A stretch of 4,246 nt of DNA from a virus (taxonomy: Duplodnaviria; Heunggongvirae; Uroviricota; Caudoviricetes), in IMG/VR virus record IMGVR_UViG_2693429733_000009, positions 1 to 4,246 of that record. One strand, written 5' to 3'. The translations under genes and the position numbers were made by a program. Of the stretch, positions 36 to 4,246 are shown in pieces. The stretch's first letter is position 1, and the number at the start of each line of letters is the position of its first letter. The notes under the pieces are model-generated. The model saw nothing but the letters and a program-made list of their open reading frames with translations, searched no databases and was not told the DNA's origin.

Positions 36-458
36 TCACAGTACCGCCTCCTGAAAATCACCCTGATAGAAAGCCGGTACACGCTGCATAACTTCACTCT
101 TCCGGCACTCGCGACAGATTATGTTCTGATGTCTGTCGTAGCGGCGTATTTCTCCGTCTGGTAATGACCAGATAAGGTCCGGATCAACCACAGATGGTTT
201 CTTCAGCTTTGCCCTCGAGAGTTTTTTGCGGGCGTTTTGCCAGTCCTTACGAGCCTGTTCAGACGGGAATAACCCGTAGCCAGAGTTGTATACATCCCCA
301 CTGGCAACCAGCTCTCTGGCGAGAACGCTTATTAAATATCTTGTCGCCCCGGTTTTAGCTTCCAGTTGTCGTAACGTCTCGCGCCCACTCTGGCGTACGA
401 GTTCAACAACCTGCCCCTTAATTTTTTCCCGCTCTTCCTGTGTAAATACTTTTGCCAT
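36..458 (-). CDS. Small helix-turn-helix protein (~140 aa), function unknown; sits where ren/nin-region genes lie in lambdoid phages
   Basis: ORF 36..473 opens with TTG at 473; the better start is ATG 458..456 (MAKVFTQEE...), stop at 38..36. HTH-like segment ETLRQLEAKTGATRYLISVLARE. The first 141 nt recur as diverged paralog fragments at 2267..2407 and 2851..2989, with ~9 synonymous changes and 1 amino-acid change (I to M), which argues for a real coding gene. A faint resemblance of the C-terminal CRECRKSEVMQRV to the lambda Ren C-terminus is from memory only and unverified. Confidence 0.6.
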   Translation of the reverse strand: MAKVFTQEEREKIKGQVVELVRQSGRETLRQLEAKTGATRYLISVLARELVASGDVYNSGYGLFPSEQARKDWQNARKKLSRAKLKKPSVVDPDLIWSLPDGEIRRYDRHQNIICRECRKSEVMQRVPAFYQGDFQEAVL

Positions 459-473
459 AAGCGCCCCCGGCAA

Positions 474-1199
474 TCACTTTTCCGACACAATACGACCGGA
501 GGAATCGACAATCTGTCGAACAATATCCCGGTGCTTGTTCAGCTCCCGCAACGCGGCGCAGACACGCTCCCACTTCTGGACATGACTTTTCGCCCGACGC
601 AGTTCGCGGTTTGCCATATGCAGCGATGGTAAAACCAGGTCATCCGCTTGCGTTTCGGTGAACGATGGCAACGACTGCACAATGTCCGCCACAGTTTCTG
701 TTTTAATTTCTTCCTGTGTTGCAGCTTCCTGTACCGGTAACGCAACACCTGCTGGCTGAGGAAAGACTTTACCATCCGTTTCCGCTATGGATGCGGCTTT
801 CGGCTCTGCCGGTAAATCAGCGCCCGGTATGCAGTACCGAAATTTACCGCCCTGATTCACGCGAATCAGACGCCCTTTGCTGATTGCCATGGCCAGCGAT
901 GAATTCGCCCGGCGGGAGGTAATCCCGAACATCAGTGCCAGCTCATCCGCCGTTTGTGGGCCATGTTGTTCAATCGCCTCAGTCAGCATTTGCGCTGTCA
1001 CTTTCGGTACCGGTGACACTGGTTCACTTTCACCAGCCTGAATCAGCCACCACATCGAACCCTTGTTATCCGCTTCACCACGGCGCTTCAGTTTCCACAG
1101 TTCGTTGACCGCATCTTCACGGCTGATTCCAAGGCGGGACGCCACCACATGTGAAGAGGCTCTTTTCAGTGCTTTCAGTGCGTCAAATACAGTTTCCAT
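474..1199 (-). CDS. Prophage protein of unknown function, 241 aa, with two winged-helix-like segments and an acidic low-complexity linker
   Basis: ORF 474..1217 (TTG at 1217); preferred start ATG 1199..1197, preceded by GGAGG at 1212..1208 with an 8-nt spacer. It begins 22 nt after the DnaC-like stop. Candidate HTH stretches: [21 protein letters not shown] and [26 protein letters not shown]. No family assigned with certainty. Confidence 0.65.
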
Positions 1200-1220: not shown

Positions 1221-1967
1221 TTACTTCACAACTCCCGGAAAGCTGACATTTGAACGCCAGCTATCCCAGTTAAACGTCACCCACCGACAACCGTTCATGG
1301 TCATGCGGTCCATAATCCTCTCACCAAGAAGCGTGCTCATTGCGGCATGATTCAGGTTTGTTAACATCCCGACACTGCACAGTGATGCTGTCCGGCGATC
1401 AATTATCTGGTGCAATACCACCTGCTCGTTTTTCGTCTCCCGCTGAATGCCTATTTCATCCAGGACCAGCAAATCAACCCCGCAAAGCTCCTGTAAAAAT
1501 TTTTCACCGGATTTGCCGTTGTCGTAGCTGTCATGCAACACGCTCATGACATCAGACACGGTGACGATAATCACGCTGCGCCCCTTCGCCATCAGCCAGT
1601 TACCCATCGCCGCTGCAAGGTGATTTTTCCCGGTGCCGGTTTTACCGCTGAACACAAAATTCGTGCACCCGGTCATCAGTTCGTCAGCTATGGATTTGGC
1701 CTGGCTCAGCGCGTATTTTTGCCCGTCGTTCTGCACCTGATAATTCGCAAACGAGCATTTGCTGTGCAGAGGCTGGATGCCCGAACGATTCAGGATTTTT
1801 TCCACCCGCAACTGGCGATTCTGGCGGTTAATCTCCTCGCTGCGTTTTCGTCCTTCAGCAAGTTGCCATTCCCGCCACTCCTCCACCGTCCGGTACGGTG
1901 GAACCGCCCCCTGTGGTGCAAGTCTGTGAATACGTTCAAGAACCCCGGCTGCCGCAATGTTTTTCAT
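1221..1967 (-). CDS. DnaC-like replicative helicase loader (AAA+ ATPase), in the lambda P-equivalent position
   Basis: 248-aa ORF, ATG 1967..1965, stop TAA 1223..1221. Walker A FSGKTGTGKNHLAAA and Walker B DLLVLDEIG. Clear end-to-end similarity to E. coli DnaC as recalled (NRSGI.PLH..CSF.NY, MLTN, LGERIMDRM, FNWDSWRS). Start lies 6 nt after the stop of the truncated initiator copy at 1974, with a GGGGGTGA Shine-Dalgarno overlapping that copy's end. Confidence 0.93.
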   Translation of the reverse strand: MKNIAAAGVLERIHRLAPQGAVPPYRTVEEWREWQLAEGRKRSEEINRQNRQLRVEKILNRSGIQPLHSKCSFANYQVQNDGQKYALSQAKSIADELMTGCTNFVFSGKTGTGKNHLAAAMGNWLMAKGRSVIIVTVSDVMSVLHDSYDNGKSGEKFLQELCGVDLLVLDEIGIQRETKNEQVVLHQIIDRRTASLCSVGMLTNLNHAAMSTLLGERIMDRMTMNGCRWVTFNWDSWRSNVSFPGVVK

Positions 1968-1973
1968 GCCACA

Positions 1974-2255
1974 TCACCCCCTGAATCCCGGCGGAATTTC
2001 GGTATCCGGTTCAGAAATATGATTCACACAACGCTGGTTGTTCGTGCCGCTTACCGGGAGCAACCAGGGGTTTTCAAAATTCCGGTCCGGCCCAAAAAAC
2101 GTCGTCGCTCGCTGAACAAATTCCGTTCCCGTTTTCCCGGTAGCCGCCAGGTATCTCGCGTAACGCCTCACACCATCCAGCATGGTCTCTGGTGGCACCC
2201 CCTCGCGCAATCTGGCCTTCCAGGCACTGAATGCGGATTTCTTCGGGTTTGCCCC
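1974..2255 (-). pseudogene. Truncated copy of the replication-initiator C-terminal domain (copy A, 282 bp, cut off by the N run)
   Basis: Collinear with 3030..3311 without indels. ORF 1974..2210 encodes ...MLDGVRRYARYLAATGKTGTEFVQRATTFFGPDRNFENPWLLPVSGTNNQRCVNHISEPDTEIPPGFRG, stop TGA 1976..1974. Upstream end abuts the 11-N run. Confidence 0.6.
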
Positions 2256-2266
2256 NNNNNNNNNNN
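2256..2266. other. Run of 11 N (assembly gap or masked bases)
   Basis: Literal n characters in the sequence, joining an initiator 3' fragment to a fragment of the 5' end of a paralog of the 36..458 gene. Confidence 0.99.
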
Positions 2267-2407
2267 GGCAAGAACGCTCATCAGATATCTTGTTGCCCCA
2301 GTTTTAGCTTCCAGTTGTCGTAACGTCTCGCGCCCACTCTGGCGTACGAGTTCAACAACCTGTCCTTTAATTTTTTCCCGCTCTTCTTGTGTAAAAACTT
2401 TTGCCAC
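2267..2407 (-). pseudogene. 5' fragment (first ~46 codons) of a paralog of the 36..458 gene, cut off by the N run
   Basis: GTG start 2407..2405, preceded by GGAGGG. Encodes MAKVFTQEEREKIKGQVVELVRQSGRETLRQLEAKTGATRYLMSVLA. Collinear with 318..458. Confidence 0.55.
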
Positions 2408-2447
2408 AAGCCCTCCTGAAAATTACCTCATGACCAGAAATTAACAC

Positions 2448-2829
2448 TTACCCCCTGAAGCCCGGCGGAATTTCGTTATCCGGTTCAGAAATATGATTCA
2501 CACAACGCTGGTTGTTCGTGCCGCTTACCGGGAGCAACCAGGGGTTCTCAAAATTCCGGTCCGGTCCAAAAAACGTCGTCGCTCGCTGAACAAATTCCGT
2601 TCCCGCTTTCCCGGTCGCCGCCAGGTATCTCGCGTAACGCCTCACACCATCCAGCATGGTCTCTGGTGGCACCCCCTCGCGCAATCTGGCCTTCCAGGCA
2701 CTGAATGCGGATTTCTTCGGGTTTGCCCCGGCACGCAACGGGTATTCCCGCCAGACCTGTTCGAACACATCCGGATAATCCACTCGTCCCACAGGCTGCC
2801 CGGTGTTTTCCGGGGCTACCCGATCGGCT
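2448..2829 (-). pseudogene. Truncated copy of the replication-initiator C-terminal domain (copy B, 382 bp, cut off by the N run)
   Basis: Collinear with 3030..3411 with 11 substitutions and no indels. Encodes ...VDYPDVFEQVWREYPLRAGANPKKSAFSAWKARLREGVPPETMLDGVRRYARYLAATGKAGTEF...PPGFRG, stop TAA 2450..2448. Confidence 0.6.
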
Positions 2830-2850
2830 NNNNNNNNNNNNNNNNNNNNN
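2830..2850. other. Run of 21 N (assembly gap or masked bases)
   Basis: Literal n characters, joining an initiator 3' fragment to a fragment of the 5' end of a paralog of the 36..458 gene. Confidence 0.99.
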
Positions 2851-2989
2851 CAAGAACGCTCATCAGATATCTTGTTGCCCCAGTTTTAGCTTCCAGTTGT
2901 CGTAACGTCTCGCGCCCACTCTGGCGTACGAGTTCAACAACCTGTCCTTTAATTTTTTCCCGCTCTTCTTGTGTAAAAACTTTTGCCAC
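2851..2989 (-). pseudogene. 5' fragment of a paralog of the 36..458 gene, cut off by the N run
   Basis: GTG start 2989..2987, preceded by GGAGGG. Identical to the 2269..2407 copy. The 40-bp intergenic stretch 2990..3029 matches 2408..2447. Confidence 0.55.
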
Positions 2990-3029
2990 AAGCCCTCCTG
3001 AAAATTACCTCATGACCAGAAATTAACAC

Positions 3030-3698
3030 TTACCCCCTGAAGCCCGGCGGAATTTCGTTATCCGGTTCAGAAATATGATTCACACAACGCTGGTTGTTCG
3101 TGCCGCTTACCGGGAGCAACCAGGGGTTTTCAAAATTCCGGTCCGGCCCAAAAAACGTCGTCGCTCGCTGAACAAATTCCGTTCCCGTTTTCCCGGTAGC
3201 CGCCAGGTATCTTGCGTAACGCCTCACACCATCCAGCATGGCCTCTGGTGGCACCCCCTCGCGTAATCTGGCCTTCCAGGCACTGAAAGCGGATTTCTTC
3301 GGGTTTGCCCCAGCACGCAACGGGTATTCCCGCCAGACCTGTTCGAACACATCCGGATAATCTACTCGTCCCACAGGCTGCCCGGTGTTTTCCGGGACTA
3401 CCCGATCGGCTTCCCGCTGAATGGCGGAATCGGCTTCAGGCTGCTGCAGTTGGTGTGATTGCTCCGGCCTTGCGGTCATCACCTGCTGCACAGCGCCCGA
3501 ATCGGCTTTCAGCGCATACGCTGAATCGGCTTCCGGTGTCGTGCCTGCTGGCTGACCAAGATTGACGGTCTGAACATCCCCTGCCTGGTTCGTGGCGTTT
3601 TTTACGCCATGGACCATAGTGTTTTGATCTTCTTNTATCTGTCGTGACTCGTCGTGACATGTGCGTGACATTTCGTGACGCGCCGTGACAATCGCCAT
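3030..3698 (-). CDS. Replication initiator (O-like), C-terminal portion; probably the 3' two-thirds of one gene whose N-terminal domain is in another frame
   Basis: ORF 3030..3698. C-terminal ~115 aa are conserved under purifying selection across three copies. Upstream part is a low-complexity, acidic, linker-like region (EADSA/KADSG/EADSA repeats). Contains one N at 3635. The start is uncertain (ATG 3698 or ATG 3617), or the gene continues from the N-terminal frame. Confidence 0.6.
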   Translation of the reverse strand: MAIVTARHEMSRTCHDESRQIXEDQNTMVHGVKNATNQAGDVQTVNLGQPAGTTPEADSAYALKADSGAVQQVMTARPEQSHQLQQPEADSAIQREADRVVPENTGQPVGRVDYPDVFEQVWREYPLRAGANPKKSAFSAWKARLREGVPPEAMLDGVRRYARYLAATGKTGTEFVQRATTFFGPDRNFENPWLLPVSGTNNQRCVNHISEPDNEIPPGFRG

Positions 3699-4077
3699 TT
3701 TGTTCCCGCTTTCTTTCCCTCTCTCGCTGCGCCCTCTTGCGCTCTGCAGGAGATTTTGCGGTTTGCGAAATATTGCCGTTGTCCTCTTTAAGCACCTGGC
3801 GTTTTTCCCATCCAGTGATTAAATCACCATCAAGTACCCGCCCCTGCATCGTCTGCAAAATTGAATCAATTACCTCTTCTGTCACGTCGAGCGCACTTGC
3901 CAAATCTTCTGTCGTGACATCAATGTGACCTCGCGTGACATTTCGTGACGCGCTCACCAGGAGGTGGATATACACTGCCATCACTGTTGCAATTGGCTGC
4001 CCTGACACCCTGGCAATTGTTCGCCACTTAGGGTCATTTGGCATGTCATGCCATAATCTGAGCCAAGCGTTAGCCAT
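3436..4077 (-). CDS. Replication initiator, N-terminal replisome-organizer-like DNA-binding domain; only roughly 3690..4077 is credibly coding in this frame, and the Arg-rich tail to 3436 is probably out of frame
   Basis: ORF 3436..4083 (GTG at 4083); preferred start ATG 4077..4075 with GAGGTG 3 nt upstream. N-terminus AWLRLWHDMPNDPKWRTIARVSGQPIATVMAVYIHLL fits the W.(K/R)L...DPK pattern of phage replisome-organizer N-terminal domains (from memory). Lies directly upstream of the DnaC-like loader module. Confidence 0.6.
   Translation of the reverse strand: MANAWLRLWHDMPNDPKWRTIARVSGQPIATVMAVYIHLLVSASRNVTRGHIDVTTEDLASALDVTEEVIDSILQTMQGRVLDGDLITGWEKRQVLKEDNGNISQTAKSPAERKRAQRERERKREQNGDCHGASRNVTHMSRRVTTDXRRSKHYGPWRKKRHEPGRGCSDRQSWSASRHDTGSRFSVCAESRFGRCAAGDDRKAGAITPTAAA
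3641..3690. repeat. Iteron-like array 1: five direct CGTGAC repeats at about 10.5-bp spacing, a candidate replication origin inside the initiator gene
   Basis: CGTGAC at 3643, 3653, 3664, 3674 and 3684 (spacings 10, 11, 10, 10). Flanked at 3611..3640 by a stretch of about 65% A+T. Sits at the boundary between the N- and C-terminal domains of the initiator. Confidence 0.6.
3911..3953. repeat. Iteron-like array 2: four direct (C/T)GTGAC repeats at 10-11 bp spacing, plus one inverted copy (GTCACG) at 3881..3886
   Basis: CGTGAC at 3913, 3934 and 3944, TGTGAC at 3924. The 21-mer gcgtgacatttcgtgacgcgc at 3933..3953 is identical to 3663..3683 in array 1. Confidence 0.55.
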
Positions 4078-4151
4078 ACTCACCTCTTCTGATACCGAAT
4101 CTTTTTACTCACGAGTTGCCGGAAGCGATTCGATATGGCTATTGTCAGTCA

Positions 4152-4246
4152 ATGTACTGCCACAGCATTTCCTGCCGGGCCACCACGGTTCATCTGATTG
4201 AAACCGGCGATTGCCACTGCGACAAAATCATCAGCGTCTCTCACCA
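4152..4246 (-). CDS. Possible 3' end of an upstream early gene (partial, only 31 codons visible)
   Basis: The only open minus-strand frame at the window edge: ...VRDADDFVAVAIAGFNQMNRGGPAGNAVAVH, stop TGA 4151..4149. Too short to identify. Confidence 0.2.

Follow-up and report, generated by a model that had tools for sequence, protein, structure and literature searches.

Among described systems, the replication module of the Rac prophage of E. coli K-12 (ydaT-ydaU-ydaV-ydaW-lygF) is one that the locus considered here resembles: a YdaT-family gene is followed by an initiator gene ('phage replisome organizer'), a DnaC-like ATPase gene, a DUF1627 gene and a DUF977/LygF gene. The O/P region of lambda, with an initiator gene that contains short direct repeats at helical-turn spacing and is followed by a helicase-loader gene, offers a second likeness. 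A further precedent concerns the assembly of such regions: in a high-throughput pipeline, joins made from read pairs generate N gaps, and a greedy scaffolder followed by a gap filler can make false joins (PMC5320598).

In this study, we analysed a stretch of 4,246 nucleotides (hereafter the window) of a tailed-phage record, in which initiator 3' ends and the starts of a downstream gene recur next to a DnaC-like loader gene and are separated by runs of N. Two types of module are distinguished throughout: the R type (Rac-like) consists of initiator, DnaC-like loader, DUF1627 and DUF977 genes, and in the Y type a DUF977 paralog (DUF977') comes directly after the initiator, without a loader. We provide evidence that the window is, with high probability, a scaffold of three short-read contigs (the proposed contigs being 1-2255, 2267-2829 and 2851-4246) that derive from two co-resident prophage modules of about 97 % identity and were joined by N.

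Gene order, repeats and N runs

The features of the window are as follows; the three copies of the repeated material are called A, B and C.

36-458, minus strand: full-length DUF977/LygF gene of an R-type (Rac-like) prophage (Pfam DUF977, 2.2e-30, full profile; PHROG 142)
474-1199, minus strand: DUF1627 gene, ydaW-like (Pfam DUF1627, 5.9e-93; same annotation in relatives)
1221-1967, minus strand: DnaC-like helicase-loader gene, ydaV-like (NCBIfam NF009043, Pfam IstB_IS21, PHROG 50)
1974-2255, minus strand: initiator 3' end, copy C, the genuine R-type initiator end adjoining the loader (1-2255 is 99.9 % identical to L006)
2256-2266, no strand: 11-N placeholder, presumed first false join (backward jump in gene order)
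2267-2447, minus strand: first 141 nt of the DUF977 paralog (start GTG 2407) and 40-nt spacer, copy B, Y-type (Pfam DUF977 profile positions 1-41)
2448-2829, minus strand: initiator 3' fragment, copy B, chimera (2450-2603 Y, 2604-2829 R, by mismatch counts per segment)
2830-2850, no strand: 21-N placeholder, presumed second false join (N run)
2851-3029, minus strand: first 139 nt of the DUF977 paralog (start GTG 2989) and spacer, copy A (same sequence as copy B)
3030-4077, minus strand: initiator gene, Y allele, frameshifted by the defect at 3635 (99.1 % identical to Y-type L016)
3635, no strand: single N, third assembly defect, in a 12-nt tandem repeat (alignment to L001-L004)
3643-3689, plus strand: five CGTGAC motifs, iteron-like, putative origin in the initiator gene (motif count against shuffles)
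4149-4246, minus strand: 3' end of the YdaT-family gene that precedes the initiator (identified by alignment with the annotated L006, L016 and L001)

On the minus strand, the end of the YdaT-family gene (4149-4246) is followed by the initiator (4077-3030), a 40-nt spacer, the start of the DUF977 paralog (2989-2851) and 21 N. Past these N, an initiator 3' fragment (2829-2448) leads again through the spacer into the paralog start (2407-2267) and 11 N, and past the latter a further initiator 3' end (2255-1974) precedes the DnaC-like (1967-1221), DUF1627 (1199-474) and DUF977 (458-36) genes. The initiator, DnaC-like loader, DUF1627 and DUF977 genes of a Rac-like module are thus all present, on one strand and in the order found in L001, L004 and L006; of the matching R-type initiator, no more than the final 280 nt adjoin the loader without a break. 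The loader identity proposed originally for 1221-1967 is confirmed by a score of 500 bits against NF009043 (cut-off 389) and by the IstB_IS21 match.

Three N features occur in the window, namely 2256-2266 (11 N), 2830-2850 (21 N) and the single N at 3635, and the backward jumps in gene order coincide exactly with the first two. Three copies of the initiator 3' end (1976-2255, 2450-2729 and 3032-3311) share 98 % identity along 280 nt, their starts lying 474 and 582 nt apart; repeats of such length and identity are far beyond chance. The 141 or 139 nt of the DUF977 paralog, together with the 40-nt spacer, occur twice (2267-2449 and 2851-3031) as identical copies, and a 300-nt pair (2256-2555 and 2838-3137) is 99 % identical. 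A 160-nt family relates the full-length DUF977 gene (318-477) to the two paralog starts (2267-2426 and 2849-3008) at 88-89 % identity. The repeat search accordingly upholds much of the original prediction: two N-gapped copies of the junction between initiator 3' end and DUF977 5' end, with N runs of 11 and 21; three initiator 3' ends and two paralog starts, each N run marking a jump backwards; and a paralog of the 36-458 gene beginning after the initiator, as its 88-89 % identity and Pfam DUF977 match agree.

The ends of the pieces fall at particular sequences. The last base of piece C, 2255, immediately precedes an R/Y SNP (the equivalent of 3312, which would be 2256), and the right end of piece B lies at the first of several short repeats containing ATCGGCTT. 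The starts of pieces A and B differ by no more than 2 nt and fall at a 23-nt block that is identical to 298-320 in the window's own DUF977 gene (four Y-type references); this block is short for typical k-mer sizes, and the stop of A and B there is only partly explained by it. All five contig-end or N positions lie at a branch or a repeat.

Allele states of the copies and of the initiator gene

Alignment of copies A, B and C gave 14 variable sites, with two states at each. Copies A and B are identical over the first 278 aligned nt and then carry opposite states at all 11 differing sites, and copy C has the R state at 9 of 11 sites and the Y state at 2132 and 2142. Within copy B, the segment 2450-2603 has no mismatch to the Y-type L017, L003 and L005 (4 to the R type), and the segment 2604-2829 has none to the R-type L006, L007 and L015, as against at least 9 to every Y-type allele; the adjoining stretch 2267-2449 has 1 mismatch to the Y-type L017. 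Judged from these alignments, the middle piece is an exact chimera of two alleles, and the three copies are mosaics of only two alleles. The pattern of A and B can be read as two different routes along a single chain of SNP bubbles, with C as a third, redundant route through the same material. Since the copies combine two existing alleles with phase switches, they are unlike the duplication of one parental segment. Three real prophage copies were also considered as their source, which is less likely given that only two states occur at the 14 sites and that piece B matches the Y and R alleles exactly on its two sides. On the other hand, copy C switches allele across a 15-nt SNP-free interval (2142 to 2157), for which a simple graph path gives no explanation and mixing in the consensus would be needed, and this counts against the scaffold reading. 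Allele phasing against closed relatives can diagnose false joins without reads.

The initiator at 3030-4077 had been described as intact, and this did not hold, as the N at 3635 splits the gene into two overlapping frames (ORFs 3030-3698 and 3436-4083). The N stands for about 24 nt of a 12-nt tandem repeat (…TGATCTGTATCTTTATCTGTATCTT…), leaving a net deficit of 23 nt relative to four references (L001-L004), and the number of 12-nt repeats at this place varies among relatives (-12 nt in L015, +12 nt in L016). Uninterrupted relatives of the initiator match PHROG 3729 ('replication initiation protein') over their full length, while Pfam and NCBIfam profile searches gave no match for the initiator. 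Exact-protein look-ups of the 114-aa ORF at 2451-2792 and of the frameshifted 213-aa ORF of the initiator N-terminal part found neither on record.

Over 3032-4246, the initiator region has 17 mismatches to R-type initiators and is 99.1 % identical to the Y-type L016, to which 3186-3633 shows no mismatch at all; upstream of 3635, the R and Y initiators differ at only 2 sites in 611 nt. By this comparison the full-length initiator of the window is a different allele from that of the loader's own partner, and comes from a module without a loader. That it is the true partner of the loader, with only the two middle units being extra, was rejected on account of the 17 sites differing from R and the Y-type match. 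Initiators of the two module types are about 97-99 % identical, the same family being used with and without an adjoining DnaC-like loader gene. Near the stop (1974-2015 versus 3030-3071) three R/Y differences are seen, of which one changes the stop codon (TGA versus TAA), one is silent and one alters a single residue (…EPDTEIPPGFRG versus …EPDNEIPPGFRG).

The initiator gene also carries short repeats. CGTGAC has 9 matches in the window, as against 2.28 expected, and 9 or more were reached in 0 of 200 shuffles; five of them stand at 10-11-nt spacing (3643-3689) and three more about 230 nt away (3913-3949), all within the initiator gene. From its spacing and count this array looks like iterons, and thus a putative origin inside the initiator gene, as in lambda. 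In the linker part of the gene (3405-3536), a repeat of about 24 nt containing GAATCGGCTT specifies an EADSA-like peptide repeat; one 24-nt unit of it (window 3499-3522) is missing from the closed relative L006.

The locus in complete genomes and sister assemblies

At least 25 other contigs, among them the complete chromosome CP180280.1 (L006), encode a protein identical to the DnaC-like loader. In all 10 places returned for these near-identical relatives (25 contigs read) the junction is direct, the initiator stop lying 6 nt from the loader start with nothing between. The window matches CP180280.1 with only 2 mismatches over 1-2255 (2,255 nt; 99.9 %) and none over 1-1975, and the DUF977 gene at 36-458 falls within the piece 1-1975 that has 0 mismatches to L006 and L015. 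Upstream in the R-type prophage of L006 there is a ParE/PaaA2 toxin-antitoxin pair, and downstream of its DUF977 gene a restriction-modification pair (N6_Mtase/Eco57I and a BsuBI/PstI-type endonuclease) followed by IS1; these features lie in L006 3081-3565 and 8561-11472.

In the Y-type arrangement, found in the phage collection and in many genomes, a gap of 40 nt separates the initiator (1,071 nt) from the DUF977/LygF gene downstream, and this initiator-to-DUF977 junction occurs in about 1,560 complete E. coli genomes. Among GTDB species-representative genomes, a search with a 35-nt initiator pattern gave only one match, a Shigella flexneri chromosome with the Y-type junction. The complete genome of E. 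coli F8704-2 has both junction types in separate prophages, R-type at 5.00 Mb and Y-type at 1.03 Mb, 4 Mb apart. It had been proposed to check whether separate prophages exist in which the initiator runs directly into the putative helix-turn-helix gene (DUF977) or into dnaC, and the outcome was positive on every side: F8704-2 has both, about 1,560 genomes have the former, and 10 of 10 places have the latter.

No collinear match to 1750-3150 was found among 5,426 complete E. coli genomes. The top records for this query account for 81-82 % of it, with a single stretch of 563 bp used three times; 563 bp is the exact length of the middle piece 2267-2829. With the whole window as query against the same genomes, the best record spans about 3.14-3.25 kb, compared with 4.25 kb in the window, and the sole longer span (4.5 kb) contains an IS2 insertion. 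The annotation order in the best-matching stretches is replisome organizer, ATP-binding protein, DUF1627 and DUF977. Places matching the window region are commonly several in one complete genome, with a median of 2 and a maximum of 9.

Draft records of the same prophage with the CX prefix contain N runs of 1, 2, 21, 175, 257 and 858 nt. Comparison with the closed L006 revealed a 191-nt re-run after a single N in L007 (position 8001), two copies of one region at 92-94 % identity around 21 N in L011 (381-401), and a 320-nt paralogous piece of 92.5 % identity joined by a single N in L010 (321). N-flanked backward jumps recur in assemblies of this kind. N runs are also present in the sister drafts L008 and L013.

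Origin of the arrangement and comparison with known systems

Several lines of evidence converge on assembly. Every structural discontinuity of the window lies at an N placeholder (2256-2266, 2830-2850 and the 23-nt deficit at 3635); the repeated segments exist as separate multi-copy loci in real genomes; the structure is absent from the closed or independent assemblies of close relatives (direct junction in 10 of 10 places, none of 5,426 genomes collinear); and the copies are mosaics of the underlying alleles, with contig ends at branch points. The apparent tandem repeats are therefore almost certainly an assembly artefact that corresponds to no real genomic structure. The suggestion that contig ends had been chained or a repeat collapsed is strongly supported by the separate loci, the direct junctions, the lack of any such chain in 5,426 genomes and the two-allele mosaics.

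Genuine tandem amplification by recombination of co-resident prophages would have produced two extra units of initiator C-terminal part, spacer and DUF977' N-terminal part, with N over short stretches, and we consider it very improbable. It would fit the regular-looking spacings (474 and 582 nt), the short N runs and the fact that prophage replication modules are mosaic and recombining. However, the arrangement is found in 0 of 5,426 complete E. coli genomes and in 0 of the 10 places returned for near-identical relatives (25 contigs read), its novel joints would be unique sequence that assemblers easily cross and yet exactly those are N, the copies are exact two-allele mosaics with phase switches, the pieces end on SNPs and repeats, and the same signature appears elsewhere in sister assemblies. 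Neither a readable novel joint, nor copies of a single parent, nor recovery in related genomes was found. An actual array in which truncated initiator C-terminal domains are fused to DUF977 N-termini upstream of the loader, the N hiding a few bases, is accordingly hardly to be expected either. The original prediction had already ranked a real duplication as the less likely alternative, and it stands in this respect, both joints being N, the copies two-allele mosaics and the arrangement absent in relatives. Less credible still would be a real hybrid locus, in which a Y-type initiator/DUF977' fragment truly lies beside the R-type loader as a tandem or nested remnant and only 2267-2829 is spurious: while E. 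coli and Shigella often carry prophage remnants with truncated genes and IS elements occur near the locus in relatives, the near-identical relatives have an uninterrupted R-type initiator beside the loader, and the R allele continues past 2255 in the right half of B, so that R-type reads beyond the join existed in the sample.

The same artefact might also have arisen from two strains in a mixed or contaminated sample instead of two prophages of one genome. The window shows only that the read pool held two allele sets, which leaves some room for this source, but we regard it as unlikely, as complete genomes commonly hold several matching places (median 2, maximum 9) and at least one of them has both junction types. 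Because multi-place genomes are common and one has both junctions, co-residence is a simpler assumption than two strains. Both prophage types were probably present in the source genome, as the two allele sets of the window and its relatives suggest.

For the scaffold of three contigs, we infer the following assembler behaviour. The near-identical initiator body would have been assembled only once, because only 2 of 611 sites differ upstream of 3635, and the assembled copy would be the one carrying Y-allele bases. At the initiator 3' end the assembly graph would split into a loader branch (R) and a DUF977' branch (Y); the initiator contig may have been extended along the Y branch into DUF977', with the loader-side contig keeping the R-type 3' end. 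Read pairs of the R-type prophage could then have linked the loader-side and initiator contigs, although these overlap rather than abut, and since the initiator contig already held the Y-type 3' end and the DUF977' start, this stretch would show as a backward jump. A 563-nt bubble contig, the other path through the same SNP sites with a Y left side and an R right side, would have been set between them. In the real genome the initiator most likely meets the loader at a single direct junction, positions 1900 and 3450 being about 495 bp apart and not 1,551 bp (495 bp being the distance between their equivalents in L006, computed from alignment coordinates, and 1,551 bp that in the window), and a separate initiator-to-DUF977' junction most likely exists elsewhere.

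The finding serves as a quality flag only: gene order, copy number and initiator-loader pairing are unusable from this record. The truncated ORFs at 1974-2989 are not pseudogenes, and the initiator of the window belongs to the loader-less prophage type and has an artificial frameshift at 3635.

The features of the window are like the false joins of the Velvet, SSPACE and GapFiller combination (PMC5320598), with small arbitrary N runs in multi-copy prophage sequence, duplicated flanks and a chimeric consensus; assigning it to any particular program, as distinct from pipelines of this type, would be inferential. Beneath the artefact lie an ordinary Rac-like replication module and a second lambdoid module. 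Phage Rac records match the window at about 84 % identity; unlike in Rac, the order in the window is broken by two units that appear spurious, and the full-length initiator allele is that of the loader-less module type. The succession of initiator and loader recalls lambda O/P, but the loader of the window is a DnaC/IstB-type AAA+ ATPase and not lambda P, and the helically spaced repeats are a putative counterpart of those in lambda, in an initiator that has no Pfam or NCBIfam match.
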